The notes under the pieces are model-generated. The model had not been told where the DNA came from. It did not search any database and saw nothing but the letters and a program-made list of their open reading frames with translations. Positions 4,306-44,998 of a DNA stretch of 64,000 nt are shown piece after piece. Origin of the DNA: Candidatus Levyibacteriota bacterium (GTDB lineage: Bacteria > Patescibacteriota > Microgenomatia > Levybacterales > UBA12049); the NCBI GenBank assembly GCA_963790825.1, contig CAWBPM010000002.1:618815-682814 (forward strand). Reading direction: 5' to 3'. The position numbers were made by a program, and so were the translations under genes. Each line of letters begins with the position of its first letter. Positions within the stretch are counted from its first letter, which is position 1.

Positions 4306-4315
4306 AAAAAAAATT

Positions 4316-4376
4316 AGAATCTAGAATTATAAATTCTAAACTAATTATGAATTCTGAATTTTGAATTCTAGATTCT
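4316..4376. repeat. TRAATTY heptamer / inverted-repeat element (AGAATCTAGAATT ... AATTCTAGATTCT, 13-bp perfect IR with 35-nt spacer containing TGAATTC TGAATTT TGAATTC)
   Basis: Lies between the ybeY stop and the dnaX start. Related elements are at 5903-5999, 7556-7700, 30183-30300 and 50790-50850. Confidence 0.7.
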
Positions 4377-4761
4377 ACTCGTGGTGCATGCCCAGTAAAT
4401 GTAATAATCCATGTTTTACCAGCTCATCAATTTTATCGTCAACCAACACTTCTTCCGCCGCAGCCTCCCTGATTATTTGCGGATATGCCAAAACAATATC
4501 CCCTAACCTGGTAATACCCTCCGGAAGTATTGCTTCTCCGCCTTCGTTAATTGGAAATGATAAAACGTTTGTTGTTTTATCTTTATCTCGGTATTTTTTG
4601 TTCAAAGATCGCATTTTCCTATCTCCCACAATTGCCACGGATACTTCAGTGGGACTACTAATATTATTTTCTCCAATTATTTCCTGAACAGCTTGTTTTA
4701 TCCGTTTTCTATTTACGCTATACCGACTTTCAACAAAGATAAGAACACGAATACTGCTCAT
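4375..4761 (-). CDS. ybeY: rRNA maturation endoribonuclease YbeY
   Basis: 128 aa with a C-terminal HGLLHLLGMHHE metal-binding motif (H..H.....H) typical of YbeY/UPF0054. Confidence 0.85.
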   Translation of the reverse strand: MSSIRVLIFVESRYSVNRKRIKQAVQEIIGENNISSPTEVSVAIVGDRKMRSLNKKYRDKDKTTNVLSFPINEGGEAILPEGITRLGDIVLAYPQIIREAAAEEVLVDDKIDELVKHGLLHLLGMHHE

Positions 4762-5572: not shown

Positions 5573-5902
5573 TTATACTCCACCAGCGACTCCGCGCATG
5601 GGGCCTAGAAGGTGAATGTGCAGATGGTCAACGTCTTGATGTCCTCCGCCATTAATCACTATTTTATATCCCTTATCCTTTAAGTCAGCCTTATCAACCA
5701 TTTTCTGGACGACATGAAGCAGCTTCTTCCAAAGTATCTGGTCTTCAAGAACTACAAACTCCGGAATATGTTTTTTCGGCATAATTAACCAGTGGATAGG
5801 CTTGACGGGATGGATATTGGGGAAAACCACAATATCTTCGTCCTCAAAGATGAATTTCGCAGGAATTTTCCCTTCTTTAATTTTGCAAAAAATACAATTC
5901 AT
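5573..5902 (-). CDS. HIT family (histidine triad) nucleotide hydrolase
   Basis: 109 aa with the HxHxHxx motif HLHIHLL near the C-terminus and an N-terminal CIFCKI typical of HINT proteins. Confidence 0.85.
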   Translation of the reverse strand: MNCIFCKIKEGKIPAKFIFEDEDIVVFPNIHPVKPIHWLIMPKKHIPEFVVLEDQILWKKLLHVVQKMVDKADLKDKGYKIVINGGGHQDVDHLHIHLLGPMRGVAGGV

Positions 5903-5999
5903 AAAAGAATTTAAAAATTATAATTCAAAATTCAGAATTAAGTATATAATTTTCAAATTCTAAATTCAATTCTGAAATATAAATTCTTAATTCTAAATT
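5903..5999. repeat. TRAATTY heptamer / inverted-repeat element (AAATTCAGAATT ... AATTCTGAAAT arms)
   Basis: An AT-rich intergenic sequence built of AATTCAA/AATTCAG/AATTCTA units with about 10-bp inverted arms and a 38-nt spacer. Confidence 0.6.
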
Positions 6000-6892
6000 T
6001 TTTCAAGCACTTTTATAAGTTCTTCCAGGCTTAGTTTCGTCGGCACCATTTTCGGGTTTTTTGGTGTTCCGTTTAACAGCATTTTTTTGCTGACATGCAG
6101 GTACCAGCTAGCATCCGGATCAATTTTTTTCAATTTTTCATAGGCTAATGTTAAATCCAGATTGTCTTTTTCAGGATTTTCTGCCGGACGAAGTTTAATC
6201 CGCACATAGCTTTTTCTCGGATCTTTCCTAATAACCAGATTATATCCCATTTTTTGTGAAAGCTTCAGAACCGAATCGTTAATCGTTTTAAAGCCGATTG
6301 CTTTCCCCCATCTGGTTTGAAAAAGAATACCGTTACCGTCTATTTCCCGTTCTGCCCAAATTCTATTTTCAAATTCATGAACTACACTGTCCAGACAAAC
6401 TTTGCCAAACTCCACATAATATTCATCTTCATCCGGCTTTGCCAGTTTCAACCCTTCCAAAACACCGATAAGTGAAAATTCCTGGTAATCGGCAGTCGGG
6501 TTGTTCCAAAATATTTCGCGAAAATGATCAATCTCCACGACTATCTTGATTACTCTATCTATCGCTTTCATATGTTCAGCTCTTAGTACGTCGCCACTTT
6601 TCGTGATTTCTTCTCTTATATAGTCCCAGGTCCTGCTCGCCCCACAAATCGTCAGGTCCGATGTTTCGTGGTGATCGAGTGGTCCCATTCCCGTATCAAC
6701 ATGCACAATCTCGTCTTTGCCGACTTTTTGCATAATATCGCCCATGTCAAGCCCTTTTACCCGCTCAGATCTAAGTCCTGCTGCAACAAATTCCACCGCA
6801 GCGTTCTCCCATCCGCTAAGATATTTTTTAATGAGCCACACAGATGTTATCGCGTCCCAATCAGGCGACGTGTGAGTAACAATAATTTTCAT
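5993..6892 (-). CDS. DHH family phosphoesterase (NrnA-like nanoRNase / pAp phosphatase)
   Basis: N-terminal IVTHTSPDWDAITS (motif I DxD), HVDTG, and GPLDHHE (DHH motif), followed by a DHHA1-like C-terminal half. Confidence 0.75.
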   Translation of the reverse strand: MKIIVTHTSPDWDAITSVWLIKKYLSGWENAAVEFVAAGLRSERVKGLDMGDIMQKVGKDEIVHVDTGMGPLDHHETSDLTICGASRTWDYIREEITKSGDVLRAEHMKAIDRVIKIVVEIDHFREIFWNNPTADYQEFSLIGVLEGLKLAKPDEDEYYVEFGKVCLDSVVHEFENRIWAEREIDGNGILFQTRWGKAIGFKTINDSVLKLSQKMGYNLVIRKDPRKSYVRIKLRPAENPEKDNLDLTLAYEKLKKIDPDASWYLHVSKKMLLNGTPKNPKMVPTKLSLEELIKVLEKI

Positions 6893-7555: not shown

Positions 7556-7700
7556 GACAGATAAATCCTAAATACTAAGTTCTAAATCCTAAATAAATCC
7601 AAATGTTCAAAATCTTAATTTTAAAACAGTTTTGTATTTTTTTATTTGAATTTTAAAATTATTTAGAATTTAGTGCTTAAGGTTTAGAATTTTTCAGACA
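7556..7700. repeat. AT-rich intergenic repeat cluster (AAATCCTAAATA x2, TTTAGAATTT x3) between convergent genes
   Basis: Direct inspection of the 250-nt gap between 7494 and 7745. Confidence 0.5.
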
Positions 7701-9794: not shown

Positions 9795-10732
9795 CGCTTT
9801 GTAACTTTGTGTCCACCAAATTCGCGGCGCAAAGCTGCCACCATCTTCGCGGCAAAGGAATTTTGAATGTTTTCGTCTGTTTGTGATTTTCTTCGAAATG
9901 AAAGTGATTCCTCGATAACCGGTACCGGTACTTTTTCTTTTTTTGCAGCTGTTATTGTCCACTCTGCTTCCCCTGTCGCATCTACAATGCCGACAATATC
10001 CGATAACTCCCGATCTTTTTCTAAAGCGTCTTTTGCCCGGTCGATCAGAAAACTTGAGATAATGGTTCCCTTTTGCCAAACTTTAGTAACTTGCAAAAGA
10101 TTGAAATTATACTTCGATTTTTCTAAAACTCCGAAACCCTCGCCGATTGATTGCATCATGCCGTACTCTATTCCGTTATGCACCATTTTTACGAAATGTC
10201 CTGCTCCGCCTGTCCCAAAATACTGATGTCTCCCATTTGGTTTGGCCAAACTATCTAGAATAGGTTTGATATACTTATATGCACTCCTCGTTCCGCCGAC
10301 CATCATCGGGTACCCGTTCTTTTCGGCCATGATTCCCCCCGAAACACCGATTCCTAAATAGGATATATTTTGTGATCTAAAATCAACAAATCGCCTTTCT
10401 GTATCTAGATAATTTGAATTACCTCCATCAATCACAATATCGTCTTTTTTCGCGTATTTTTTAATTTCCTGAAGAGCTGTCTCTGTCGGCTGTCCGGATG
10501 GAAGCATCAACCAAACAATACGAGGTTTTCCTAGATTTTGCATGAGTTCTTCAATCGTTTGGGTAGTTATCAAATTTTTTAATGCTTTTGGTTGCATTTT
10601 TTTTATCTCCCTTGCAAATTCTTCAGTAACAGTATATGTCCTATTCCAGACAACGACAGAAAAGCCCTTTCTAAGAAGTTTCTCCGCTATTCTCGCTCCC
10701 ATTTTCCCAAGTCCTAAAATTGCAATTTGCAT
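9791..10732 (-). CDS. gnd: 6-phosphogluconate dehydrogenase, decarboxylating (short YqeC/Gnd-like form)
   Basis: N-terminal Rossmann fold IAILGLGKMGARIAEKL, GIGVSGG, and the 6PGDH C-terminal domain. Immediately downstream of zwf with a 4-nt gap. Confidence 0.75.
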   Translation of the reverse strand: MQIAILGLGKMGARIAEKLLRKGFSVVVWNRTYTVTEEFAREIKKMQPKALKNLITTQTIEELMQNLGKPRIVWLMLPSGQPTETALQEIKKYAKKDDIVIDGGNSNYLDTERRFVDFRSQNISYLGIGVSGGIMAEKNGYPMMVGGTRSAYKYIKPILDSLAKPNGRHQYFGTGGAGHFVKMVHNGIEYGMMQSIGEGFGVLEKSKYNFNLLQVTKVWQKGTIISSFLIDRAKDALEKDRELSDIVGIVDATGEAEWTITAAKKEKVPVPVIEESLSFRRKSQTDENIQNSFAAKMVAALRREFGGHKVTKR

Positions 10733-10736
10733 AAAT

Positions 10737-12212
10737 TTACAGCCACTTTCTCCCGTCTTTTTCGATTAAATCGTTTGCCTGCTTAGGACCAGTCGAATTA
10801 TCTTTATACGAATACAGCGGAACTTTTGACCTTTCCCACCCCTTAAGAATTCCTGTAATAAATGTCCAGGAACTGACGAGCTCATCCGACCGATTAAACA
10901 GCATTTGATCCCCTGAGAAAATATCGAGGAGAACTTTCTCATACGCATCCAACAAATGATGTTCCTCATGTTCTTTATAGGCAAATTTCATATCAATAGT
11001 TTCCAGAGAAAGACGGGAACCAGGCGTTTTCGCAATGATGCGAATTTGAATTCCTTCATCCGGTTGGATGCGAAAGGTAATCACGTTCCCGACTTCCGGA
11101 CAACCGTATTCTTTAAATAAAATGTGACAGGTCTGTCTGAAAACGACTGAAATCTCCATCATTTCTTTTGGCATTTTTTTGCCAGCCCTCAAATAAAACG
11201 GAATGTATGCAAAGCGCGGATTATCTAAAAATAACTTCATTGCTACGTACGTCTCTGTTTTTGAACCAGGGAGTACATCCTTCTCATTTCTATAGCTCTC
11301 GTATTGAGCCCGTACAACTGTATTCTCTACCTCCTGTGGGTTAACGCAAACTAATGATTTGATCGCATCCGACCTGACATCTCTGATTGCTTCTTTCTCA
11401 AAACTCTTCGGCTGCTCCATCGCAATAGCCGACAGTAACTGCATCAAATGATTTTGCCCTACATCCCGAAGGATTCCAACCCCGTCAAAAAATTTACCCC
11501 TTTTGCCGACTCCTTCTCTTTCCATCCAGGTAATTTGTATGTGATCAATATGTTCTTTGTTCCACATGGGCTCGAAAATTCCATTTGCGAAACGAAACGC
11601 CAAGAGATTCTGCACTGTTTCTTTGCCTAGATAGTGGTCAACCCGGAAAATTTGTTTTTCACTAAAAATCTCCGCTAATTTTCCATCCAGCATCTGTGCT
11701 GTTTCTACGTCTTTTCCAAACGGTTTCTCAATAACAATCTTGATCCCCTGCCCGCTAGTGCCAGCCAGGGGTTGTGGCAGGCGGGATTTATTAGATCCCA
11801 ATTTCGTACTATTTAAATACCGCAGGATATCCGAATAGTGATCCGGCGGCGTCGCGAGATAAAAAATCCGCGCAATATATGCGCCAATTTCTTTATCAAA
11901 CCCATTTAATTTCCGAGCGAGCTCATTATAACCTGCGACCTCGTTAAATACTCCTTGTTGATAATAAATATTTTTACTAAATTTTGCCCAAGCCGCTTTA
12001 TCCTCCGGTTTCATTTCCTCAGCCAAAAGTTCCCGAAATGCAACGTCTTTAAACGAACGCCTGGCAAATCCGACAATATAAAACTTTTCCCCCAATTGCT
12101 TTTTTTTATAGAGAGAGAAAAATGCAGGGAACAATTTATGAAGGGATAAGTCCCCAGTCGCGCCGAAAATTATCATAACAAAGGGGTTCTGCGGAAGCGG
12201 AGAATTTTCCAT
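10737..12212 (-). CDS. zwf: glucose-6-phosphate 1-dehydrogenase
   Basis: IIFGATGDLSLHKLFPAFF NADP-binding motif, the RVDHYLGKE active-site motif, and a 491-aa length. Confidence 0.9.
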   Translation of the reverse strand: MENSPLPQNPFVMIIFGATGDLSLHKLFPAFFSLYKKKQLGEKFYIVGFARRSFKDVAFRELLAEEMKPEDKAAWAKFSKNIYYQQGVFNEVAGYNELARKLNGFDKEIGAYIARIFYLATPPDHYSDILRYLNSTKLGSNKSRLPQPLAGTSGQGIKIVIEKPFGKDVETAQMLDGKLAEIFSEKQIFRVDHYLGKETVQNLLAFRFANGIFEPMWNKEHIDHIQITWMEREGVGKRGKFFDGVGILRDVGQNHLMQLLSAIAMEQPKSFEKEAIRDVRSDAIKSLVCVNPQEVENTVVRAQYESYRNEKDVLPGSKTETYVAMKLFLDNPRFAYIPFYLRAGKKMPKEMMEISVVFRQTCHILFKEYGCPEVGNVITFRIQPDEGIQIRIIAKTPGSRLSLETIDMKFAYKEHEEHHLLDAYEKVLLDIFSGDQMLFNRSDELVSSWTFITGILKGWERSKVPLYSYKDNSTGPKQANDLIEKDGRKWL

Positions 12213-21888: not shown

Positions 21889-21933
21889 GCAAACACGACT
21901 ATTATATCAGGAGTGAAAGGAAAATGAGCGTAG

Positions 21934-22698
21934 TTATAACTCAATCCCTTGGTCGGTAATGAGGATTGTTTTACAGGCAATATCCGGCCTGGTAAAAAAA
22001 CGAGCCGGAATGTCTTCTTCTTTACCGGAATTAAAGGTTAATTTTAATGCTTGTTTTTTATCATCTCCGAATACTAAAATAAGGAGTACATCAATCATCG
22101 ACAGTCCCAAAAAAGTCATGCTGATCCGCTCTTGATACGTTGCATCAGGATACAGGTACGCACTCACCTGGTCTTGCTCCGACAATTCTGAATTCTGAAT
22201 TCTAAACTCTGAATTTCTGGCCAAAAGGCCTGCCGTATGTCCGTCTTTTCCGATTCCTAAAATAGCCAGACTATTTTGAAATGTTGCATGCATTCCTCGT
22301 ACGACCTGATCATAGTCTTCTGCCGTTTTTTTAAGGTCGGTTTCGGCAGTTATAATCGGAGAGAAACGAATATCCCGCATGTGGAAATAATTAAGCAGCC
22401 CCGAGTCTCTGATCATCGTTTCATTACTGTTCTCGTGAAATTTAGGGCTGAACCGTTCGTCAACTAATCCGACTGCTCCGGGTATCAATTTTTCCTCTTT
22501 GGCCAAGGTTTTGTAAAGCTCTTTTGGAGTATTTCCGCCGGAGAGAAACAAGGTTGTTTTTCTATCAACCAAAAGATAGAGGATTTCTTTACCCAGATCT
22601 AAGCCTTCTTCGCTACCATAAACCGGACAAACTAAAATTCCTGTATTTATAAACGACAAGATATTTTTCGTTTTCAGAAGTTGTATAACTTCTTTCAT
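21934..22698 (-). CDS. pgl: 6-phosphogluconolactonase
   Basis: LSGGNTPKELY and the LGIGKDGHTAGL signature of the 6PGL/NagB family. Carries an unusual in-frame insert NSEFRIQNSELS encoded by TRAATTY heptamer repeats. Confidence 0.75.
   Translation of the reverse strand: MKEVIQLLKTKNILSFINTGILVCPVYGSEEGLDLGKEILYLLVDRKTTLFLSGGNTPKELYKTLAKEEKLIPGAVGLVDERFSPKFHENSNETMIRDSGLLNYFHMRDIRFSPIITAETDLKKTAEDYDQVVRGMHATFQNSLAILGIGKDGHTAGLLARNSEFRIQNSELSEQDQVSAYLYPDATYQERISMTFLGLSMIDVLLILVFGDDKKQALKLTFNSGKEEDIPARFFTRPDIACKTILITDQGIEL
22184..22218. repeat. Five tandem imperfect heptamers (AATTCTG AATTCTG AATTCTA AACTCTG AATTTCT) embedded in-frame in pgl
   Basis: Same TRAATTY motif as the intergenic heptamer elements. 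Translated on the minus strand as part of pgl. Confidence 0.6.
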
Positions 22699-23882
22699 GG
22701 CTTTGCAAATTGTTGCGCGATATCTTTATAGGTGATCAGAATAATAAGCAGCAGAAGAATCGCCATACCGACCTGGTGAATGTAGCCTTCTATTTTCGGA
22801 TTAACTTTCCGACCGGTCACTCCTTCCAGAAGAATAAAAAACAGTCTTCCCCCGTCAAGTGCGGGAATCGGCAGTATGTTGAAAAATGCCAAAGAGATTG
22901 ACAAAATACCTGACAGATTGAGAATCTGAAGAATCCGCTCTTTCATGTTGGGAATTTGCACTATCGTACCGACCAGCGAATAGATGCCGACCGGTCCTGA
23001 AACACCCTGGCTGATTGGCGCTGCGTTTCTTTCTTTGATAGAGACACTGAGGAGCTGTCCCAAAACGTCGAAATTATAGAGCATAAGATTTATCGGATGG
23101 ACAATTCCGGACAATGCTTTTTCTACCGGTGTTTTATAGCTTAATTCGATGCTTTCTGCCGGGAAAAATGCCACGCCTAATGCCCCCTGGTTCTTGGGAG
23201 GATTTACCCTGGGCGTTACACTGCCCGAGTAGGTTTGATTAGTCTCCAGATTTTGCCAGGCAATAGTTATTTTTTTTCCCTTATCTGCCTGTACAATTTT
23301 TACAAATTCGTCAGGACTGGTAACATTTATGCTATTTAGCGAAGTAATTCTTGAATTGACTTGGATACCCGCCATCTCTGCCGGTGAATTTTTCTCTACC
23401 TCACTTACTATAATATCCGATCTTTTCTGCTGCTCAACCAGGAAGAACTTGTGATCGCCGAGAAGCGGCAGCTCCGTATGAAAACTAGAGATAAACATAA
23501 ACGCATAGTAAATCAGAATTGCCAGAATCGCGTTCATAATAACGCCGGCTATGACGACTGCCGCACGTTGACCAACCGACCGAGTGTAAAAAGCCCGCTT
23601 TTCGTCTTCCTTGTTTTTTGTTTCTGTTTTCTCTTCCGCAGGTCCGATTCTTCCTGCCCCTGCTTCATCTTCGCCGTAAAGTTTTACGAATCCGCCAATC
23701 GGCAACCAGTTAATCGAATATTCCGTCTCTCCCCTTTTAATGCTGAATGCTTTGGGTGGAAAGCCGAATCCGAATTCCTCAACTTTTATTCCCAATTTTT
23801 TCGCAACAAAAAAATGTCCCGCTTCGTGGATGAGAACGAGAACCGATAGAATGATGAGAAACGTAATTGCGGTAAGTAGCAT
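22695..23882 (-). CDS. rseP: RIP metalloprotease RseP (site-2 protease)
   Basis: HEAGHF zinc motif in the first TM helix, a central PDZ domain, and a C-terminal LDGG motif (ALDGGRLFF). Confidence 0.85.
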   Translation of the reverse strand: MLLTAITFLIILSVLVLIHEAGHFFVAKKLGIKVEEFGFGFPPKAFSIKRGETEYSINWLPIGGFVKLYGEDEAGAGRIGPAEEKTETKNKEDEKRAFYTRSVGQRAAVVIAGVIMNAILAILIYYAFMFISSFHTELPLLGDHKFFLVEQQKRSDIIVSEVEKNSPAEMAGIQVNSRITSLNSINVTSPDEFVKIVQADKGKKITIAWQNLETNQTYSGSVTPRVNPPKNQGALGVAFFPAESIELSYKTPVEKALSGIVHPINLMLYNFDVLGQLLSVSIKERNAAPISQGVSGPVGIYSLVGTIVQIPNMKERILQILNLSGILSISLAFFNILPIPALDGGRLFFILLEGVTGRKVNPKIEGYIHQVGMAILLLLIILITYKDIAQQFAKP

Positions 23883-23940
23883 TGAGTATTAATTATAGCA
23901 TGTTTAGCATATGAGAGACAGGGAAAGTGTATTAAGTATT

Positions 23941-24112
23941 ATGTAGTAAAAATTCTTCTCTGTTGAGTTTCCGTTGTATTTTTTCGCAGAGACGAATGCT
24001 ACTTAAAAAGTAGGTAAGCTAAAAGACGGTGCGAGTGAATAAGCACCAGTATGAATAGTTTGTTCTAGGTAGGTCTCAAGAAAAAATGCAGAGGAAACGA
24101 AAATAGTTAGGT
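23941..24112. repeat. Mosaic intergenic repeat, copy A
   Basis: Contains module 1 (AATTCTTCTCTGTTGAGTTTCCGTTGTATTTTTTCGCAG, 23951-23989) and module 2 (TAGGTCTCAAGAAAAAATGCAGAGGAAACGAAAATA, 24070-24105). Both recur at 30029-30274, and the TTTTTTCGCA..GACGAATG..TAC core recurs at 44973-44998 and 45892-45918. Confidence 0.7.
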
Positions 24113-24134
24113 CGATTAGAAATTAGCAATTCTC

Positions 24135-24716
24135 CTACATGGCCATCAGTTCCGATTCTTTCTGTTTTCCCAAATTTTCAATCGTTTGACTCGTTTCATC
24201 GATAAACCGCTGCAGATCTTTTTCAAGTCGCATTTTATCATCATCCGAAATCGTTTTTTCATCATGCTGCTTTTTAATTTGCTCCATAATTTCATGCCTG
24301 ACTTGACGGGCCATAATCCGTCCGTTTTCGAGTTTGTGTTTCATGAGTTTTGCCAGTTCTTCCCGCCTTTCCTGCGAAAGCGGCGGCAGACTAATCCGGA
24401 TCAGCGTACTATCCACCACAGGATTCATGCCGACATTGGCATCCTGTATACCTTTTGCAATTTCATGAATAATCGATTGGTCATACGGAGTAATGACGAT
24501 TGTCTGCGGATCAGTGGTGCCGACTGTCGCCAGTTCAACTATTTTCATCACCGTAGTTCCACCATAAACTTTAACTACAACATTTTCAACCAAAGACGGC
24601 GCTGCTCTGCCTGTGCGGATCGTTCCAAGATCGGTTTTCAATACATCTAAAACTTTCTGAAGCCTCTGTTTTGCCTCGTCAAGAATATCTCTATCCATAG
24701 CCCCAGTATACACCAT
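24135..24716 (-). CDS. frr: ribosome recycling factor
   Basis: 193 aa with the characteristic central and C-terminal RRF helices (…IRISLPPLSQERREEL…KDLQRFIDE…). Confidence 0.9.
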   Translation of the reverse strand: MVYTGAMDRDILDEAKQRLQKVLDVLKTDLGTIRTGRAAPSLVENVVVKVYGGTTVMKIVELATVGTTDPQTIVITPYDQSIIHEIAKGIQDANVGMNPVVDSTLIRISLPPLSQERREELAKLMKHKLENGRIMARQVRHEIMEQIKKQHDEKTISDDDKMRLEKDLQRFIDETSQTIENLGKQKESELMAM

Positions 24717-24768
24717 TTGAAAAAATTAAAGAAGAGAGTTTTTGGGAAGTATCTGCCCGATTTACTGG

Positions 24769-24796
24769 TTGACAGGAGAAAAATTTGTGCTATTAA
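24769..24796 (+). promoter_or_regulatory. sigma70-like promoter candidate (TTGACA-16 nt-TATTAA)
   Basis: TTGACA at 24769-24774 and TATTAA at 24791-24796, 22 nt upstream of the ATG at 24818. Confidence 0.4.
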
Positions 24797-24817
24797 GAGA
24801 TGATCAATTACTGATAG

Positions 24818-25411
24818 ATGGAAAAAGGTCGCTTTACGCCAGAACAATCCGCTCCTATTCCACATACTCTGCGAATGGGTGAGGTTTGGACGCCATTTCG
24901 GGAAGGACAATTCCCCGTTGATCAGCTTGCATTCAGAATACAACTTCCGATTATGTATGAAGGTTATCCGGGCAATGTTGTTCTTGAAAGGACAACCAGA
25001 GATACAGGAACTAAAGCAAAAAAAACCACCACTATCCAAGCAGCATTCCCTGACATTGGCAGAAGGGATCCTTTTAGAAAAGAACTCGATAATACTGTTT
25101 TAAGTGTCGTAAATCCCCAAGAAGATACAGTACTGACTTTTCAGGAGGCGACTGAAGAGCATACCAGCGGTGTAATATCCCCTTCGGAAGTTTTATATTC
25201 ATACCGGGACGCAGCGATGAAGCATACCGAAATTGAAGTGATGAGTGCCTCGGATTACGTTCGTTCACAGCAGGAAAAAAAACGACGTCGTTTACAAATC
25301 CAGAAACAGTTAGGAGAAGCATATGACCATCTTGATTGGGATTCACCAATAATTAATACCTTATATGAGAATGCAAAGGTACAGGTATTACGTCGCATAT
25401 TTTGCGTTTAG
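24818..25411 (+). CDS. hypothetical protein (197 aa)
   Basis: ORF track. Plus-strand promoter candidate upstream. Overlapping minus-strand ORFs are judged spurious. Confidence 0.4.
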   Translation: MEKGRFTPEQSAPIPHTLRMGEVWTPFREGQFPVDQLAFRIQLPIMYEGYPGNVVLERTTRDTGTKAKKTTTIQAAFPDIGRRDPFRKELDNTVLSVVNPQEDTVLTFQEATEEHTSGVISPSEVLYSYRDAAMKHTEIEVMSASDYVRSQQEKKRRRLQIQKQLGEAYDHLDWDSPIINTLYENAKVQVLRRIFCV

Positions 25412-25652
25412 TCGGATTAAGACCAATGTATTCGGGAAAACTATTCCGGGAGCTGGGAGAAGATGTACCGGATGTAGTGCAGGAGATGGTTATGAATAAT
25501 GAGATTGCATATTCCGAAGCTAGGTTTTTAGTGCCAAATAATAAACCTGTGCTATCGAAGTAATATAATTTCTCTACTAAAAGTATCTTTGTAATCATTT
25601 GACAATAGAACAATTCAACAATCTAACAATTTAATAATCTCCGTCCTCTCCC

Positions 25653-25717
25653 GTCATTCCCGAACCAATCGGATTTGAACTTTGAAATTATTTAGGAGTT
25701 AGTTCGTCAGCTGACGG
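25653..25717. repeat. Intergenic repeat module D (GTCATTCCCGAACCAATC) plus 12-bp palindrome CGTCAGCTGACG
   Basis: 16/18 identical to 30082-30099; palindrome at 25706-25717. Confidence 0.45.
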
Positions 25718-25799
25718 ATTAGAATTTAGAATTTGCCTAAACTTATAGGTCTTTTTAATCTCTTGTGTATCGCTGCTGAATTTACTACAATACAAGAGT

Positions 25800-26789
25800 A
25801 TGGTTTCCTGTGAAAGTCGGGTAGAAAAAGTAAAAGATCCTTACAAAATGAAGTCTCAAGAATTACAGGCTTTGGCTATGGATGAATCCGGAAAGTCAGA
25901 TGACAACCAGAAAAAATCCAGACTTCTTCGCGTTTCTAGCTCATGGCATAGAATTACCCAGACGCTAACCGAGTCCCGTACCAAACGGCGGATTGGCGGC
26001 GGTGTTGTTTTAGCATTAAATGTTTTAGCTTTTAAACAGCCGGAATTAGCCAGCGCTATAGGTATATTTTTAGGAGGTGCTGCCGGCGCAACAATAGCCG
26101 CTGATACGGATTTTACTGAGAAAATCAACGAGCGGCAGGTCGAGAAACAGGCAGAAAAACAAATTACAGCAGTTGAACCAGATAGACCGGTTCCCCACTC
26201 CATGCTGGTGGAAATATTTGCCTTGCATCCGGATGTTATTCCAGCTTCGGAAATTAGAGACTGGAGTATTAATTCGCGTCGTGCTGAGCGTAAATATCGT
26301 AAAGACATAAGACTTACCGCTTCGGAATCAGTCTTTGATCATGCCGCACATATGACTGGAAAATTAAGGGCAAATATTGGTCAAGCGAAACAAACAGTTT
26401 TAGTTGCTCAAGTGGAGGCACAAAAACACAGATCCGATCCTGAGTTTATGAAAGCAATAGCCTTTCGTAAAATTGGCGGCGTATCGGCAGGTGTAGTTCT
26501 GGGTGGATTGGGTGGGTTCGTTTCGGTAGGAATGTTAGGACCGATTGGCGGAGCTATTGCCGGCACTGCCGATGATGCCTATTTGGTAGCAAGACTTTGC
26601 GGCGAAGATATCCGGCATTTAGTACATAAATTTATTAAGTCCGGATCGGATGATCTCCCTTCCTCTCCTATCTACATTTCACCAATTAGTCAGGAAGTAG
26701 CAATAAATTCTGTTTTTAGTGCTGCCCGCGACATTGTGATTCCAATTCGTTCTGAAACATGTCCGAGACAAACAGTTAGAAGATTATAA
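25800..26789 (+). CDS. hypothetical protein with two glycine-zipper-like segments
   Basis: GGGVVLALNVL...IGIFLGGAAGATIAA and GGVSAGVVLGGLGGFVSVGMLGPIGGAIAGTA resemble glycine-zipper (GxxxG repeat) membrane segments. Confidence 0.45.
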   Translation: MVSCESRVEKVKDPYKMKSQELQALAMDESGKSDDNQKKSRLLRVSSSWHRITQTLTESRTKRRIGGGVVLALNVLAFKQPELASAIGIFLGGAAGATIAADTDFTEKINERQVEKQAEKQITAVEPDRPVPHSMLVEIFALHPDVIPASEIRDWSINSRRAERKYRKDIRLTASESVFDHAAHMTGKLRANIGQAKQTVLVAQVEAQKHRSDPEFMKAIAFRKIGGVSAGVVLGGLGGFVSVGMLGPIGGAIAGTADDAYLVARLCGEDIRHLVHKFIKSGSDDLPSSPIYISPISQEVAINSVFSAARDIVIPIRSETCPRQTVRRL

Positions 26790-26800
26790 AAAGAAGTGTG

Positions 26801-27259
26801 CTATTCGCCAATGGCGAACCTCGTGAAGCGTTTAATCGTAATATTTTCACCCAGTTTCCCGATCGTGCTTTTTATTAGTTGTTCAACCGTCACTGAGCTG
26901 TCCCGGATATATTCCTGCTTAAGTAATGCTTTTACCGATTCCGGTTTCATTGCGGCAATCTGCATTCCCAGTTCCCGCGCCAGTCTTTTGAAATCATCAG
27001 TTTTCGCGACAAAATCAGTTTCGCACAAGAGTTCAACCAAAACGCCAACCCTGCCGTTATGAATATACGAATCAATGATTCCTTGCGAAGTTTCCCGATT
27101 GGCTTTTTTCTCTGCTTTTTCGACCGATCGCTTTTTCAACCAAGCTAAAGCTTTTTCGAAGTTGCCGTTTGATTCCTCCAGGGATAAACGACAATCGGCA
27201 ATTGAAGCTGATGTCTCGTCGCGAAGTTTTTTCAGAATTTTTAAATCAACTTGTAGCAT
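26801..27259 (-). CDS. tsf: elongation factor Ts (short form)
   Basis: N-terminal UBA-like LRDETSASIADCRLSLEESNGNFEKALAWLKK, then GVLVELLCETDFVAKTDDF. Directly downstream of rpsB. Confidence 0.8.
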   Translation of the reverse strand: MLQVDLKILKKLRDETSASIADCRLSLEESNGNFEKALAWLKKRSVEKAEKKANRETSQGIIDSYIHNGRVGVLVELLCETDFVAKTDDFKRLARELGMQIAAMKPESVKALLKQEYIRDSSVTVEQLIKSTIGKLGENITIKRFTRFAIGE

Positions 27260-27326
27260 AGTTTCAAAGCGTATAGCTGCTAGCGGTTAACGTTTAGTAT
27301 TTTTTCTAAACGCTAGTCCCTAAACC

Positions 27327-28406
27327 CTAGACGCTACTTTTTGTTGCTGCTTTCTTTGCTTTTTCTGTTTTGACTTTCACTGGTTTTGCAACTTTTTTTT
27401 CTTCTGCTTGCCCTGAGCGAGGTCGAAGGGTTTTCGCCTCTGGTTTTTTTACTGCCTCTTCGGCTTTTTTGGCTTCTTTGGTCTGCCCCACCTGCCCCGC
27501 GCTTTGCCCTTCCGACTTGTCCGGCGAAGCCTTGGCGGAGTTGGAAGCTTTCAGCGAAGGAGAAGAGTCTTGCTTGCCGGTCGAAGCCTTGCTTGCCGGT
27601 CGAAGCCTTGGCGGAGTCTGAGCGGAGTCTGGAGGAAGTGGGGAGCTTTGTTGAAGGGCTTTCTTCTCTGCTTCTAGGGCTGCTTTCGTTGCTTCCTCTT
27701 GTGCACTCTTTTTTCCTTCAATCCACGAATCTACGATATAACTCGTGATTAATTTGATTGAGCCAACTGCATCATCATTAGCGGGAATCGGATAATCAAT
27801 AATCGTCGGATCAGAGTTAGTATCGGTAATTCCGACTGTTGGTACATGCATTTTCCTGGCTTCCCGTACAGCCAAATCCTCAAGGTGCGTATCAATAATA
27901 AAAACCGCGTCAGGTGTATGAATCATTTCCGAAATTCCTCCATAGAAACTCAGTAATTTGGTTCTCTCTTTTTCCCACAGCGATACTTCTTTTTTGGTAT
28001 ATTTTGCTTTTTCCTCAGGGCTTTGCAGATTTTCTTCAAGTGTTTTCAACTTTTTAAAGTTTTTTAATACTTCAGAAAAATTGGTGAGGATACCGCCAAT
28101 CCAACGATTGGTAACGAAATATAAACCTGTTGCCCCTGCTTCATGTGCTCGTTTCGCTTCTTCCAAGACGATGCCTGCAGCCTGTCTCTTCGCGCCGAGC
28201 ATGATCATCGTGCCATCCTTTTTAGCGATACTTCTTACGAAGTTACCCGCCTCTTCGAGTCCTTCTTTAGTTTTGGCTAAATCGATAATGTGGATATTGT
28301 CGCGAGCTTCGAAAACAAAATCGCGGGACTTAGGATTTTGGCGAGTTACTTGGTGGCCAAAATGGCACCCAGCTTCAAGAAGTTCTTCAAGTGTAATTGT
28401 ACGCAT
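27327..28406 (-). CDS. rpsB: 30S ribosomal protein S2 with about 110-aa low-complexity Lys/Ala/Pro-rich C-terminal extension
   Basis: LLEAGCHFGHQ...VTNRWIGGILTNF, then a tail of KASTGKQDSSPSLKASNSAKASPDKSEGQ...KKAATKSSV containing tandem DNA duplications. Confidence 0.9.
   Translation of the reverse strand: MRTITLEELLEAGCHFGHQVTRQNPKSRDFVFEARDNIHIIDLAKTKEGLEEAGNFVRSIAKKDGTMIMLGAKRQAAGIVLEEAKRAHEAGATGLYFVTNRWIGGILTNFSEVLKNFKKLKTLEENLQSPEEKAKYTKKEVSLWEKERTKLLSFYGGISEMIHTPDAVFIIDTHLEDLAVREARKMHVPTVGITDTNSDPTIIDYPIPANDDAVGSIKLITSYIVDSWIEGKKSAQEEATKAALEAEKKALQQSSPLPPDSAQTPPRLRPASKASTGKQDSSPSLKASNSAKASPDKSEGQSAGQVGQTKEAKKAEEAVKKPEAKTLRPRSGQAEEKKVAKPVKVKTEKAKKAATKSSV
27573..27632. repeat. Tandem duplications inside rpsB tail: 19-bp unit CTTGCCGGTCGAAGCCTTG x2, followed by an approx. 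11-bp GCGGAGTCTG(A) x2
   Basis: Direct inspection. The 19 + 11 = 30 nt of duplicated sequence keeps the frame. Confidence 0.7.
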
Positions 28407-28561
28407 AATTTTGTGTCCCTTTTCCCTTCCGTAGCTTTAGCGTAGGAGGGTTTCCGCCATCTATCTATTTATTATTCAAGGACATCTGATAGATGTGAGA
28501 ATTTCTACTCAGTATTATAGTACAGGGCAAGTGGTATTGCAAGGGTAATAGTAATCGTTCC

Positions 28562-30034
28562 TTGTTGACATCTAAAGAAAGAAATATTTACAATAAAGAT
28601 AAGTGTACAATTTTTATTGTACAAATCCTAATGAAAATAAGAATAGAGAAAAAAGCTGTAGGAAGAAAGAGAAAGATAAATAGAAAAGATTCCCGGGGTG
28701 GCATAGGCATCGGCTATCCGCTTTTAATCCTTATCGGAATAACGATTCTTGCTTTTTTCTTAAGCGGTCTAAATTATAAGCCGCCTGTCTTAAATTCGCC
28801 GAGTAACGCCGCTCCTGACAGTTATACTTGCTGCGACACCGGGGACGGAGCAAATTGCCAGCCAATAACTACCAATACTATTTCATTTCACTCGCCATCT
28901 TATCAAGAAGGAACACCTCAATTCGGAACCACTTATGAATACCAGCTACTGAAAAGTAATGTCGCAATTCTTGAGCCAAGCCATTTACAGGATTCGGGAC
29001 AGATCGCCCCAGACGGTAATCATATTTTTTACAGCGATTCACAACTTACAGGTTATAACGGGAAACAATTCGGGACACCATCTGATCCTTCAAGCTGTAA
29101 TACTAAGACTCACACCCAAGATGTTGTAGGCGTCTGGGATCGAGTAAATAATGGATTGAGTTGGTGTGTAGGTTTTCCTGATGATGAAATTGTCTATGTC
29201 TGCCGTACTACCCCATTAAGTGATTGTTTAAAACCCGAAGGCACCGGCGTTTTTGACGCCTACTTCCGCGTAGCAGACGGTGCCGTTCCTACTGTTATTA
29301 GTAGTTGCGTGAAACCTACCGGTACATATAATTTAACAGCCAGTCCGCAAACAATTAGCTATCAAAATTACCCGAGCCCGGGAAAAAAGAATCTGCAGCT
29401 TGAGACCTTTACCGCATCGTTATCAGCTCCACAACAGCCGTGGATGTCTCCTTTCTGTAAACCGGCGGTTTATTTGTATCCTCCGGAAAAAACAGCCGTG
29501 AATGTGCAAATCGCACCACTTGGAAAACTTATACTCACCATTCCTACCTATCCTGATTCCGGTTGGAATGTTACTGCCTATCCTGACGGAAAAATCGTCG
29601 AGGGAAATTCTACTTATGACTATCTTTTTTACGAGGCTTCCATGCCCGATAGTCTCCTGAGTAATCCTATCAATGGTTACTCTGTCGCCTATGATAAATT
29701 GTCTGACTTTTTCCAAAATACCTTACCACAGTTAGGTCTCAATCAAAAAGAACAAGTACAATTTAGTGAGTATTGGCTGAAAGCCCTGCCCTACTCTCCC
29801 TATTATTTTGTCGGTGTAGAGCCGGAATCGCTCCTCAATGCCATTTCACCGTTAACGATAACGCCTAAGCCTGATACCACTATCCGTGTTGACCTATACT
29901 TCGAACCCTTTGATCATCCGGTTAGTTCGAACCCGCCGGCAAATTTACAAATCAAAAGATCCGGTTTCACCGTCGTTGAATGGGGAGGTTTATTTAAGAA
30001 AGATGTTCAGCATCCCTTCACCTGCTTAATGTAG
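28562..30034 (+). CDS. hypothetical secreted/membrane-anchored Cys-containing protein (likely start MKIRIEKK near 28634)
   Basis: N-terminal hydrophobic anchor GIGIGYPLLILIGITILAFFLSGL, then a 420-aa extracytoplasmic region with YTCCDTGDGANCQP and several Cys. No family recognised. Confidence 0.5.
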   Translation: MLTSKERNIYNKDKCTIFIVQILMKIRIEKKAVGRKRKINRKDSRGGIGIGYPLLILIGITILAFFLSGLNYKPPVLNSPSNAAPDSYTCCDTGDGANCQPITTNTISFHSPSYQEGTPQFGTTYEYQLLKSNVAILEPSHLQDSGQIAPDGNHIFYSDSQLTGYNGKQFGTPSDPSSCNTKTHTQDVVGVWDRVNNGLSWCVGFPDDEIVYVCRTTPLSDCLKPEGTGVFDAYFRVADGAVPTVISSCVKPTGTYNLTASPQTISYQNYPSPGKKNLQLETFTASLSAPQQPWMSPFCKPAVYLYPPEKTAVNVQIAPLGKLILTIPTYPDSGWNVTAYPDGKIVEGNSTYDYLFYEASMPDSLLSNPINGYSVAYDKLSDFFQNTLPQLGLNQKEQVQFSEYWLKALPYSPYYFVGVEPESLLNAISPLTITPKPDTTIRVDLYFEPFDHPVSSNPPANLQIKRSGFTVVEWGGLFKKDVQHPFTCLM

Positions 30035-30300
30035 TAATATAAATAAATTCTTCTATTGAGTTTCCTTTGTATTTTTTCGCAGTCATTCCCGCTCCAATCA
30101 AACATTCTTCCAGGCTTAATTCGCATTCCAAACGACGATTATTTTATAACATCAACGAAATTTAACGTCTTTCATAATAACTTTCAGATCTTTACTTGTG
30201 ATTTTGAATTTTAAATTTTAAATTTATTCGATAGGTCTCAAGAAAAAATGCAGAGGAAACGAAAATAATTAGGTTAATTTTTAATTTTGAATTTTAAATT
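30029..30300. repeat. Mosaic intergenic repeat, copy B (module 1 at 30046-30082, D-like module at 30082-30099, module 2 at 30232-30274, TRAATTY heptamers at 30197-30225 and 30276-30300)
   Basis: Module 2 is 36/36 identical to 24070-24105. Module 1 is about 90% identical to 23951-23989. Confidence 0.7.
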
Positions 30301-30303
30301 CTC

Positions 30304-31632
30304 TTACGGTAGCGGAAATCCTGCAGTAAATGCCTTCACTTCTTTCGCAATTTTTGTTAAATTTTTATTATTGGCGATTTTTTTCCGATATTCCTTCATA
30401 AGTAGACTTCTTTTCTGTTTATCGTCTTTTGGCAGTATCATTCCTTCTACCTCCGCAATTACCAGGTCGTACCATTTGGCGATTTTTTTCATGTCTTTTT
30501 CTTTCATTCCCCTAGTCGTAATTGCCGGAGTCCCGAGTCTGATTCCCGAAGCAAAAAGCGGCGGCATATTGTCTCCCGGTACCCCGTTATAATTAAGGAC
30601 AATCCCCGCTTTTTCGAGTGCTATTGCCCCGACTCTGCCGTTTACTTTTTTATTTCGAAGATCAATGAGAATAAGATGATTATCTGTTCCGCTGCTAACC
30701 AAATCAAATTTTAGCGCTGTTAATTCTAAAGCGAGTGCTTTCGCGTTTTTCACAATCTGCTTATTATATTTTCTAAAACTCGCTGAGTCCGCTTCTTTCA
30801 AAGCAACTGCGATTGCTGCTGTTTGATTATCATGTGGTCCACCCTGAAGTCCGGGAATAATCGCTGTTTCCAATTTAGCCGGTAAATCGGGCATCTTCCG
30901 AAGTCCTTTTTCAGTCACCATAATTATTGCACCCCTCGGCCCCCGAAGCGTTTTATGTGTCGTCGTCGTAATGATGTCGACAAATGGCACAGGACTGGGA
31001 TGCACGCCTGCCAGAATCAAACCGGTGATATGTGAAATATCTGCCATCAGAAAACAGCCGGCTTTCTCGGCTATTTTTCCAAATTTCTCAAAATCAATAA
31101 CTCTCGGATACGCGGTAAATCCGCAGATGAGAAGTTTTGGTTTTTCTGCCAGAACCTGTTTTTCAATAAGATCATAATCTAATAGATTATCTTTTCCAAG
31201 CTTATAATGTACTGCTGTAAAAAACCTGCCGGACAAACCTAACTTATGTCCATGTGTTATATGTCCCCCGCTGGCTAAATCCAATCCCATCAACTTCTCT
31301 CCATTTTGCAAGAGTGCAAAATAGACTGCAGAATTTGCCGGTGATCCGGAAAGCGGCTGGACATTGACATACGGTACGCCAAATAGTTTCTTTGCCCGTT
31401 CTTGCGTTAGAAGTTCGACGCTGTCAATAACTGCATTTCCCTGGTAGTAACGTTTATTGGGAAAACCTTCAGAATATTTATTAGTCAAAACCGAACCGAG
31501 TGCTTCCATGACAGCTTGTGAAGTGTAATTTTCCGAGGGAATCATTTCTAAGACTTCTTTTTGCCGTTTTTCTTCTTGCCGGATAAGGATGTAAATCGCG
31601 GGATCAGTCTTCTTTAAACGCTTCATTATCAC
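30304..31632 (-). CDS. glyA: serine hydroxymethyltransferase
   Basis: PLP-lysine motif TTTTHKTLRGPRGA, GGHITHG, 442 aa. Confidence 0.9.
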   Translation of the reverse strand: MIMKRLKKTDPAIYILIRQEEKRQKEVLEMIPSENYTSQAVMEALGSVLTNKYSEGFPNKRYYQGNAVIDSVELLTQERAKKLFGVPYVNVQPLSGSPANSAVYFALLQNGEKLMGLDLASGGHITHGHKLGLSGRFFTAVHYKLGKDNLLDYDLIEKQVLAEKPKLLICGFTAYPRVIDFEKFGKIAEKAGCFLMADISHITGLILAGVHPSPVPFVDIITTTTHKTLRGPRGAIIMVTEKGLRKMPDLPAKLETAIIPGLQGGPHDNQTAAIAVALKEADSASFRKYNKQIVKNAKALALELTALKFDLVSSGTDNHLILIDLRNKKVNGRVGAIALEKAGIVLNYNGVPGDNMPPLFASGIRLGTPAITTRGMKEKDMKKIAKWYDLVIAEVEGMILPKDDKQKRSLLMKEYRKKIANNKNLTKIAKEVKAFTAGFPLP

Positions 31633-33105: not shown

Positions 33106-33350
33106 ATAAATCCAATAATAGTCGCGATTTTATTCGTAAGCTATTGTTTTGTCAAGCGGTAAAAAATCCTCATTCGCTTTTTTCTCTTCCAGTTGGAGTA
33201 TTCTCATTTGCGGCTGTTGTTTCATGAGCGTTTCAAGTGTAGTCATTTATGAGATCAACACAAGATCGAGTCGAGGACTGGATTTTACCAAGCTTGCCAA
33301 AATTTGGATTTTTAAGTAAATAAGCGTTTACGACTGATATAATAAGTACT

Positions 33351-34304: not shown

Positions 34305-34346
34305 TCATTGATTTTACGCTCATTCTACCTATAATAGAATATACCT

Positions 34347-39310: not shown

Positions 39311-39458
39311 GTTTCAGAGCATTATAGCAGGAGAAAGAAAAAGTAAAAAGCAATACTTTAAAGACAATCATTCATTATTGTAACGTATAAAACTGTCTGT
39401 CATTCTGGAGTGGATGCAATCCATAATAGAATCCCTTACAAATAATATGTCATCGCGA

Positions 39459-42329: not shown

Positions 42330-42385
42330 CTATCTTTCCGAATCCAAAAACGTACACTTGTACCCATTTGATTCGCCCTTTTCTT
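42330..42385. repeat. Partial duplicate of the folA 3' coding end (direct repeat of 44456-44500)
   Basis: AAAAACGTACACTTGTACCCATTTGATTCGCCCTTTTCTTCA versus AAAAACGTATACTTGTACCCGTTTGATTCGCCCTTTTCTTCA, 40/42 identical and in the same orientation. Confidence 0.75.
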
Positions 42386-42430
42386 CAGCTACTACTTTTT
42401 AAAATATGTTATGCTATAGAGAGTTACCCT

Positions 42431-44444: not shown

Positions 44445-44939
44445 TTATTTTCTCAGGTCTAAAAACGTATACTTGTACCCGTTTGATTCGCCCTTTTCTT
44501 CATACGCGATTTTTGTAAATATCTTTTTATATTCCGGGAAAAAGGCGTCGCCATTGATCGTCGTATGGACAATCGTTAAATAGAGTTTATCGGCAAACGT
44601 AATTGCCTGCTTAAAAATCTGTCCGCCGCCGATGATGAAAATCTCCTGTTTTTCATAATGCCAGGCGATTTCAATTGCCTGTTCTAAAGAATTTGCCGTT
44701 GTCGTATCCGCGTTTCCGACAAATAACCCAGATGTGTGCGTAATAATAATATTTGTTCGCCTTGGGAGAGCTTTTCCGATCGATTCATACGTTTTCCGTC
44801 CCATGATAACGACATGGCCGGAAGTAAGTTTTTTAAAACGTTTCAAATCCTCAGGAATATGCCAGGGAAGTTTATTCTCTTTCCCTATCACCCGGTTTTC
44901 AGAAAGTGCTGCAATAAGACTAATTTTCGGCGTATTCAT
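44445..44939 (-). CDS. folA: dihydrofolate reductase
   Basis: ISLIAALSENRVIGKENKLPWHIPEDLKRFKKLTSGHVVIMGRKTYESIG, GGGQIF, 164 aa. Confidence 0.9.
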   Translation of the reverse strand: MNTPKISLIAALSENRVIGKENKLPWHIPEDLKRFKKLTSGHVVIMGRKTYESIGKALPRRTNIIITHTSGLFVGNADTTTANSLEQAIEIAWHYEKQEIFIIGGGQIFKQAITFADKLYLTIVHTTINGDAFFPEYKKIFTKIAYEEKGESNGYKYTFLDLRK

Positions 44940-44972
44940 TTTTATATATTGCTTAATTTTGCGTTTGCTTAG

Positions 44973-44998
44973 TGTTTTTTCGCAATGACGAATGTTAC
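44973..44998. repeat. Intergenic repeat core GTGTTTTTTCGCAATGACGAATGTTAC (family of 23976-24002)
   Basis: 23/27 identical to copy A. Confidence 0.5.

Follow-up and report, generated by a model that had tools for sequence, protein, structure and literature searches.

A family of interspersed, structured intergenic repeats with exchangeable interiors in Levybacteria-like Patescibacteria

The stretch of DNA analysed here (the window; 64,000 nt of contig CAWBPM010000002.1 from a Candidatus Levyibacteriota bacterium) contains four copies, c1 to c4, of a repeated intergenic element, all on the + strand. Copy c1 (23955–24112, full-length, with similarity to c2 beginning at 23941) is located between rseP (22695–23882, −) and frr (24135–24716, −) and is antisense to both genes. 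Copy c2 (30040–30275) lies between two convergent genes, a 490-aa open reading frame (ORF; +) and glyA (−), copy c3 (44958–45104) between the divergent folA (−) and a GATase gene (+), and copy c4 (45883–45955) between the GATase gene (+) and a CofE-like gene (+). These neighbours agree with the description of the region in an earlier note. The element represents a previously undescribed family of interspersed structured intergenic repeats of Levybacteria-like Patescibacteria, which is strand-specific, covarying and multi-copy, with an exchangeable interior and a dynamic distribution.

The 36-mer TAGGTCTCAAGAAAAAATGCAGAGGAAACGAAAATA, which the earlier note had singled out as a perfectly conserved core, is exact at two sites only, 24070–24105 in c1 and 30232–30267 in c2, both on the + strand; none of 100 dinucleotide shuffles matched it, even with three mismatches allowed, and zero matches are expected by chance. 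Sharing between the two copies goes beyond the 36-mer: blastn aligned a right block of 43 nt (97.7% identity, 24070–24112 versus 30232–30274) and a left block of 40 nt (90% identity, 23950–23989 versus 30045–30082), and ATGTAGTAA is common to c1 and c2 farther upstream than the left block. The module TTTTTTCGCA..GACGAATG.TAC, said to recur near folA and between the GATase and CofE-like genes, is exact at 23979–24002 (c1) and, near folA, at 44975–44998 (c3); at the other site c4 retains only the reduced form TTTTCGCA-GAATG...ATTCAAGAAAA (45885–45952). A tiny ORF (MQRKRK) noticed in the core occurs in c1 and c2 only, its ATG and frame being absent from every other family member, so that a small protein gene is not supported. 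The sequence GTCATTCCCGAACCAATC at 25653–25670 (+), listed earlier as a related core, does match the c2 interior, since GTCATTCCCGnnCCAATC is found at 25653 and 30082. This pattern was chosen post hoc and has two copies only in the window and 76 loci; it was therefore left out of the family count, its membership not being established.

The element has a fixed polarity: on the folding strand the left module pairs with the right one, so that a long helix joins the ends. From 5′ to 3′ the element comprises P0 with tandem G.A motifs, P1 (15–22 bp, including an invariant U6:A6 run), an asymmetric, conserved internal loop (5′-GCAA/AA-3′), P2 (4–5 bp), GAAUG, a variable domain and GGUGG. The consensus of the 5′ half is (GA)GCGA(A)GGAAC AAAUUUUUUC GCAA GGAC GAAUG, followed by an interior of ~75 nt, and that of the 3′ half is GGUGG GUCC AA GAAAAAAUUU n GUUCC GAGC(GA). 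The tandem G.A motifs at the base of the helix read GAGCGAGG...CCGAGCGA, the inverted A/T tracts AAATTTTTTC and GAAAAAATTT are invariant, and P2 covaries (GGAC/GUCC, GAGAC/GUCUC, UGAC/GUCA). UUUUUUCGCAnnGACGAAUG was found in all full-length copies, although the copies were recruited by that pattern. The 14 full-length copies measure 129–137 nt, and variants range from ~67 to 236 nt; the mini variant of ~67 nt, with a P1-GCA-GAAUG...AUUC-AA core, is present in two genomes (c4 and locus L008). Interiors are conserved between copies only to ~55–65%. A GGUR...YACC hairpin recurs in them with differing sequences, and RNAalifold found no consensus fold of the interior, where the recurrent hairpins are not alignable.

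A covariance model (R1) built from eight consensus-type copies and containing no window sequence recovered c1 (45.9 bits, E 9e-8), c3 (40.1 bits, E 1e-6) and c4 (16.1 bits, E about 0.15–0.4). In c1 the 5′ arm of P1, GUUUCCGUUGUAUUUUUUC (23967–23985, +), is joined to 24080–24098 by 18 pairs, including two to three U.G, with one G.A mismatch. It is followed by the conserved core (23986–23998), consisting of internal-loop GCA, the P2 5′ strand GAGAC (23989–23993) and GAAUG (23994–23998), and by the variable interior (23999–24072), which contains the hairpin GGUGC-GAGUGAAUAA-GCACC (24028–24047). The 3′ half (24073–24106), which makes up the bulk of the 36-mer, comprises the P2 3′ strand GUCUC, loop AA, the P1 3′ arm GAAAAAAUGCAGAGGAAAC (24080–24098), tandem GA and P0. 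The predicted RNA fold of c1 has −50.2 kcal/mol (z −4.4) on the + strand and −30.7 kcal/mol on the − strand.

Copy c3 is a full-length, divergent paralogue with ~65% identity to c1 and compensatory changes. Its P1 (44961–44981 with 45080–45100) has 22 pairs, its P2 is formed by 44986–44989 with 45073–45076, and its fold has −44.8 kcal/mol (z −3.5). Relative to c1, P1 of c3 shows C-G to G-C and U-A to A-U changes, together with G.U pairs; GUUUCC/GGAAAC of c1, for example, corresponds to GUUUGC/GCAAAC. Copy c4 is the 67-nt mini variant, with P1 (45886–45904 with 45933–45951), GCA, GAAUG, a 14-nt hairpin, AUUC and AA; its short architecture matches the independent copy L008 9084–9164, which scores 36 bits, and its sense fold has −29.7 kcal/mol versus −15.0 for the antisense. 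Copy c2 has c1-like left (30060–30082) and right (30232–30274) arms and an unrelated interior (30083–30231). The replacement extends from right after CGCAG up to just before UAGGUCUC, so that the P2 5′ strand is lost; P1 pairing is intact (−25.9 kcal/mol), and neither covariance model recovered c2 as a whole. One run of AT-rich heptamers lies inside the c2 interior (30191–30225) and another in the flank directly after the copy (30277–30300); they belong to a separate repeat family.

The scan pattern TTTTTTCGCANNGACGAATG was applied to metagenome and genome contigs. Among its 47 metagenome matches, 13 loci with 11 distinct copies show the complete architecture and the remainder are chance matches; of its 16 genome matches, three are true (two contigs of one metagenome-assembled genome and a Candidatus Levybacteria chromosome); a stricter pattern (..NTAC) gave no matches in the genome scan. 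Covariance models added four copies within the fetched loci: L037 7831–7976, L006 7321–7429, L008 9084–9164, with the same mini architecture as c4, and a weak one at L041 7306–7383. The family thus totals 19 copies in at least seven genomes or metagenome populations, four in the window and 15 outside, at a density of up to 2 per 11–13 kb. A lack of further copies genome-wide, which the earlier note had named as a refutation of its reading, is contradicted by these 15 in other contigs or genomes. A second covariance model, built from all 19 copies, found nothing more in the window, and no true copy was found in viral contigs, phage records or plasmid records. Rfam 15 gave no match at gathering thresholds over the whole window; at E ≤ 10, for the window and the consensus-type copies, nothing lay over the elements except a 12-bit chance match to U6. 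A literature search on the core sequence and on repeat or RNA motifs of the Candidate Phyla Radiation (CPR) gave nothing relevant.

The window serine hydroxymethyltransferase (SHMT) has 77–80% identity to proteins named Levybacteria or Saccharimonadales, and the homologues of L006 AtpD are from Patescibacteria and Levybacteria. Judged by protein similarity, the hosts of the element are Levybacteria-like Patescibacteria (CPR). Loci L049 and L052 are the two element-bearing contigs of the metagenome-assembled genome recorded as ‘Candidatus Acidiferrales bacterium SMAG_U13943’. Their G+C content is 43%, and metagenome contigs of Patescibacteria-like character match them exactly; mis-binning may explain the Acidobacteriota label of SMAG_U13943.

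In an alignment of the 19 copies fitted to the model structure, 95.3% of the cells are paired and 17 of the 21 pairs are changed on both sides. The covariation score is 0.478 versus 0.151 ± 0.017 in shuffles, none of 500 of which reached it, and it is 0.095 or less when the 3′ partners are slid by one to three columns. Folding of the arm duplexes, which does not depend on the alignment, covered 16 distinct copies: their outer arms are wholly different in sequence, and all pair. The P1 pairs comprise 120 U-A, 56 A-U, 42 G-C, 40 C-G and 19 G.U or U.G, with no A.C among the 1x1 P1 mismatches. Neutral decay of a DNA palindrome would yield G.U-type and A.C-type mismatches equally often; the presence of G.U pairs without A.C mismatches, unlike such decay, therefore indicates that one strand is selected for pairing. 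Of the 19 copies, 14 fold more stably in the sense direction, the window copies most strongly, with margins of 19 kcal/mol in c1, 15 in c4 and 6 in c3.

The copies occupy short intergenic spacers. The downstream gene is on the strand of the element in 17 of 19 cases (binomial p ~4e-4; 16 of 18 with the two orthologues taken as one case); only c1 and c2 deviate. The upstream gene is co-oriented in 11 cases, with a gap between its stop codon and the element of 6–57 nt in ten of them and 249 nt in the other. The downstream genes are unrelated in function and include atpD, atpA, pheS, gdh, nth and genes for an AddA-like helicase-nuclease, a PurP-like ATP-grasp protein, a CAP-domain protein and a GATase.

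Several conventional assignments were rejected. A riboswitch or other cis-regulatory leader does not agree with the unrelated downstream genes, the TATAAT before the ATG in at least eight loci and a P1 too stable to switch. An intrinsic terminator is absent at c1, and the element has no U-tract, A-rich 3′ flanks and a loop of ~90 nt. A promoter carried by the element as its general role was dismissed, as the distance to the downstream −10 box varies from 11 to 90 nt. The interior micro-ORF (M-I-I-T-N-K-W...) is present in few copies only, with varying stop positions; in a K-turn reading of the GA motifs the bulge would be on the wrong side; and the CsrA-like (CAAGGACG) and sigma-54-like (TGGCAC) resemblances have an unsuitable spacing or context.

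Many window genes, and several in related loci, have an nCTATAAT box 6–12 nt before the ATG and no Shine-Dalgarno sequence. Examples are located at 23883–23900 (rseP), 21889–21910, 33330–33350, 34325–34346, 39311–39330 and 47707–47725. This arrangement suggests that most mRNAs of the source organism are leaderless or nearly so.

The distribution of the element varies among relatives. It is absent from ~64 kb around glyA in three other Levybacteria-like genomes (L065, L068 and L069), and in the closest available relative (80% SHMT identity) the syntenic glyA-rpsB-tsf-frr-rseP block is without it and has other genes where c1 and c2 would stand. Nor does the element occur in the atp operons of L073–L075, three relatives that include the chromosome bearing the L051 copy. 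In all, the distant Levybacteria loci examined around glyA and atpD, ~110 kb, contain no copies; L006, by contrast, carries copies in both the atpH|atpA and the atpG|atpD spacers. In the close pair L009 and L048 the element is present in both orthologous loci, between a divergent gene and nth (~80% DNA identity); its base is ~90–97% identical and its interior ~55%, and the 5′ flank and neighbouring spacer are not alignable. Retention in this pair and absence from distant relatives indicate that the element is inherited and constrained over a short range and gained or lost over a long one. The near-identical arms and unrelated interiors of c1 and c2, in turn, indicate recent copying or conversion with exchange of the interior.

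Three further observations concern the surroundings of the copies. Just 3′ of the element, L009 (reverse strand) has a 21-nt insertion relative to L048, flanked by a direct repeat of the terminal CCGAGC, which suggests slippage or recombination at the element end. A short-read contig (L001, run ERR11594402) corresponds to window positions ~24076–30261, and both of its ends lie inside the 36-mer of c1 and c2; the repeat fragments assemblies of this genome. The dcd-tmk-thyA-folA-glyA cluster is contiguous in L065, L068 and L069 and scattered over 24 kb in the window (30304–31632, 44445–46750, 49621–50616 and 53470–54102), where c2, c3, c4 and a transposase gene adjoin the separated pieces.

The reading that we favour, although we hold it at a little short of an even chance, is that the element acts as RNA, as a module for the processing or stability of transcripts running across the spacers. 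Its transcription, which the co-orientation with the downstream gene in 17 of 19 cases supports, would either continue from the gene upstream or start at a weak promoter immediately 5′, and the long helix with its conserved loop would form a cis-acting module, possibly a double-stranded target for RNase III or a barrier to the exonucleases PNPase and RNase J. A protein would probably recognise the GCAA/AA loop and the G.A motifs. The element may have spread, in the past or still, as a non-autonomous repeat whose copies swap or lose their interiors, which would produce the ‘mosaic’ pattern of c1, c2 and c4. CPR genomes keep the genes of all three enzymes, rnc, rnj and pnp (PMC12641178). There are precedents for repeats that are transcribed and either show compensatory changes or influence the stability of mRNA, namely bcr1 and ERIC (PMC3184786) and Correia elements (PMC2649163).

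Several points weigh against this reading. The earlier suggestion of a small non-coding RNA family is borne out as far as a multi-copy, covarying and strand-specific secondary structure is concerned; we infer the RNA nature from the G.U asymmetry and the covariation, and hairpins of single-stranded DNA (ssDNA) would show both. The alignment behind the covariation score had been fitted to the model structure, and part of the apparent invariance of the core stems from the way the copies were recruited. A strong TATAAT box stands between the element and the downstream ATG in at least eight loci, at a variable distance of 11–90 nt, so that the element is outside the proximal mRNA of the downstream gene and is no fixed part of its promoter. 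A role purely in the 3′-untranslated region fails, since 6 of 17 cases have a divergent gene upstream, and c1 is antisense to both neighbours. Finally, at each of 10 loci the element folds on the C-rich strand (the window, L006, L008, L018, L037, L039, L041, L043, L048 and L051), regardless of the majority gene orientation. Where genes lie on both strands, in seven loci, the two gene sets share the sign of the skew, which suggests a replication-type effect and not a coding effect. In the window the G-rich strand carries rpsB, tsf and frr and is for that reason presumed to be the leading one; the GC3 skew (GC skew at third codon positions) of the atp genes is negative also where the genome lacks the element. 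A bias to the C-rich strand is not foreseen by an RNA-stability model and, tentative in so small a sample, hints at a replication-linked (DNA-level) constraint.

A rival explanation is a DNA-level mobile element similar to REPINs or PATEs, whose ssDNA hairpin would be acted on by a strand-specific enzyme encoded elsewhere, for example a transposase of the Y1/HUH type or some other recombinase, and whose RNA structure would be a by-product. We consider this explanation unlikely, although it has a real chance of being correct. Apart from following the C-rich strand at all ten loci, the copies are numerous, dispersed and patchy and are absent from the syntenic frr-rseP and atp sites of relatives; the interior of c1 and c2 was swapped exactly at the P1/P2 junction between near-identical arms; ssDNA substrates, too, are expected to form G.T-tolerant, strand-specific hairpins; and c1 disregards the transcription direction of its neighbours. 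The earlier note had proposed a MITE-like element built of swappable modules and a check for target-site duplications. The conserved base and swappable interior are confirmed, every copy has terminal inverted repeats in the form of arms of 15–22 nt, although these covary between copies and are not constant, and the presence or absence of copies at orthologous sites likewise agrees with a MITE; in the flanks of the 19 copies no copy-specific direct repeats were found, and the GAGCGA at the ends is the same in all copies and is therefore part of the element, not a target duplication. The only transposase gene of the window (48442–49515, −; IS-type DDE transposase with rve, rve_3 and HTH_28/32 domains), located between a gene of unknown function and thyA, has no clear terminal inverted repeats, and its ends bear no relation to those of the element. 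This excludes it as the parent insertion sequence and, with the lack of target duplications, speaks against a classical MITE by the criteria tested. A REP/REPIN-RAYT system was rejected because the element is ~130 nt long and AT-rich and has no GTAG-type end, and no Y1_Tnp domain was detected among ~59 proteins scanned. Moreover, the folding strand is the C-rich one, taken as the leading-strand template, and the strand behaviour of IS200/IS605 elements is the opposite. Mobility also leaves the co-orientation with the downstream gene (17 of 19) unexplained, and the conservation across genomes of unpaired junction nucleotides and of a length of 129–137 nt suggests more than an end-recognition hairpin.

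The copies could instead be independently transcribed genes for trans-acting small RNAs, for example protein scaffolds or sequestering RNAs, each with its own promoter just upstream; we regard this as rather improbable. TAnnnT hexamers are located 5–15 nt upstream of the 5′ end in most copies (TATTAT with a GAGACA −35 in c1, TAATAT in c2, TATATT in c3, TATAAA in L041 and TAAATT in L039). Six copies in divergent spacers, and c1, which is antisense to its neighbours, cannot be transcribed by read-through from upstream; the conserved loops and constant length also agree with small RNA genes. However, in spacers as AT-rich as these chance alone should produce −10-like hexamers, and those found are weaker than the regular nCTATAAT gene promoters. 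No terminator follows the element, whose 3′ flanks are A-rich; in ten copies a promoter would have to fit into the short distance of 6–57 nt from the stop codon upstream; and the high copy number and the replaceable or deletable interiors (c2, c4) are unusual for a trans-acting small RNA.

A bolder version of an RNA-level role would make the element a new CPR-specific functional RNA class, with, for example, self-processing or protein-guided processing. Its placement, in sense upstream of genes and always on the C-rich strand, would be set by both transcription and replication. To this we give only a small chance. If true, a CPR RNA class on the C-rich strand (taken here as lagging) would point to a role with head-on genes or in the interplay of replication and transcription in genomes that are minimal and largely leaderless.

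Catalysis, in the form of a new self-cleaving ribozyme or other catalytic RNA that processes transcripts between genes, appears improbable. The copies are multiple, patchy, intergenic and co-oriented with genes, their invariant nucleotides cluster in the internal loop and junction strands between covarying helices, and the ~67-nt minimal variant keeps the P1-GCA-GAAUG...AUUC-AA core in two genomes; the element matches no ribozyme of Rfam. Against catalysis, the interior is wholly replaceable, as in c2, where P2 is lost and the arms stay near-identical; the conserved core is small; and a closing helix of 15–22 bp is atypical of the known small ribozymes.

Also very improbable is a module of double-stranded DNA, such as a transcription factor or nucleoid-protein site, a promoter or an UP element upstream of genes. 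The earlier note had suggested a transcription-factor binding module, and the position upstream of and co-oriented with the next gene, 11–90 nt before its −10 box, as well as the invariant inverted tracts AAATTTTTTC and GAAAAAATTT, would suit one. The outer arms, however, differ completely between copies yet stay complementary, and G.U is tolerated where A.C is not, an asymmetry without meaning for duplex DNA; recognition of double-stranded DNA predicts neither feature. The promoter distance is variable, the half-sites are ~95 bp apart, and one copy (c2) lies where two genes converge, another (c1) antisense to both neighbours. Chance similarity or a single local duplication, suggested by the 6.1 kb between c1 and c2 and their having the longest identical stretch, is refuted by the absence of chance matches in shuffles and by 19 covarying copies in at least seven genomes or metagenome populations.

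Among known repeats, the element resembles ERIC/IRU (~127 bp), which are imperfect palindromes of similar size with many intergenic copies and variants with internal insertions or deletions. ERIC, when co-transcribed, is thought to affect mRNA stability (PMC3184786). There is, however, no sequence similarity, and the CPR host belongs to another phylum; ERIC-type elements have terminal inverted repeats and a flanking TA, neither of which was found here, and the CPR element differs in its invariant internal-loop and junction nucleotides, tandem G.A motifs and marked polarity. The dispersed bcr1 repeat of the Bacillus cereus group (~155 bp) has an RNA structure kept by compensatory changes and a distribution not conserved between relatives (PMC3184786). 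The CPR element shares dispersal, compensatory changes and a distribution that varies among relatives; bcr1, in contrast, is flanked by 5-bp direct repeats, was shown to be transcribed and folds into a two-hairpin cruciform, whereas the CPR element is known from sequence alone and forms a single long closing helix with a variable cap.

Correia/NEMIS elements of Neisseria are likewise intergenic inverted-repeat elements, of 100–160 bp. In transcripts they fold into long hairpins open to binding and cleavage by RNase III, which changes the expression of neighbours (PMC2649163). Correia elements differ in having near-identical terminal inverted repeats, TA duplications, sites for integration host factor and promoter-generating ends, whereas the arms of the CPR element covary and neither target-site duplications nor a consistent promoter geometry were found. 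REP/REPIN-RAYT (Y1) elements and the IS200/IS605-derived PATEs are hairpin-forming, strand-specific, non-autonomous and multi-copy and evolve with the genome. Their orientation can relate to replication. REPs are palindromes of ~20–40 nt, in contrast to a multi-helix element of ~130 nt with a C-rich folding strand, and they have a conserved GTAG end and a cognate RAYT gene; neither a GTAG-type end nor a RAYT gene was seen for the CPR element, with ~59 proteins scanned for Y1_Tnp. With the orphan ‘motif’ RNAs of Rfam it shares covarying secondary structure, conserved loop nucleotides and a narrow phylogenetic range; it differs in matching no Rfam 15 model, in being unusually repetitive and in having an exchangeable interior.

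To our knowledge, very few non-coding RNAs or repeat families have been described in CPR/Patescibacteria, and we know of no documented interspersed structured intergenic repeats in this phylum. The genomes of these bacteria are extremely compact (~1 Mb). Up to one copy per 5–15 kb, with a selected structure and invariant loops, implies a cost worth paying. The element may offer a handle on transcript processing or stabilisation in CPR, or on a mobile element with an unknown mechanism, and as a compact RNA (~67 nt in the mini variant, ~130 nt in the full form) it is testable. In practice, it breaks short-read assemblies and could serve as a lineage marker.

In the second, unrelated repeat family, AT-rich 7-nt units (AATTCTG, AATTTTG, AATTCTA) follow one another in runs, and many spacers contain palindromic hairpins formed by them. 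In the window such runs are located at 4315–4377, 5902–6001, 7581–7681, 22184–22217, 25673–25730, 30191–30225, 30269–30302 and 50806–50849; L073 has similar runs at 9890–10005 and 11370–11520, and comparable AT-rich hairpin repeats fill the atp-operon spacers of another Levybacteria genome. A stretch of ~47 nt in a divergent spacer (44458–44504) is about 44/47 identical to the 3′-terminal coding part of folA (42343–42390), 2.1 kb away, and looks like the leftover of a second dihydrofolate reductase gene. A perfect tandem array, (ATAACCA)x12.3, occupies 52551–52636, a short way upstream of a gene (52679–53440) whose product has a T4SS-pilin-like domain, and is a possible slipped-strand switch. 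The region 54133–62559 contains two or three very large surface-protein genes with VWA, SdrD_B and CarboxypepD_reg domains and Thr/Pro-rich repeat blocks, in which a 300-nt segment is duplicated 1315 nt apart (60542–61175 versus 61860–62490).

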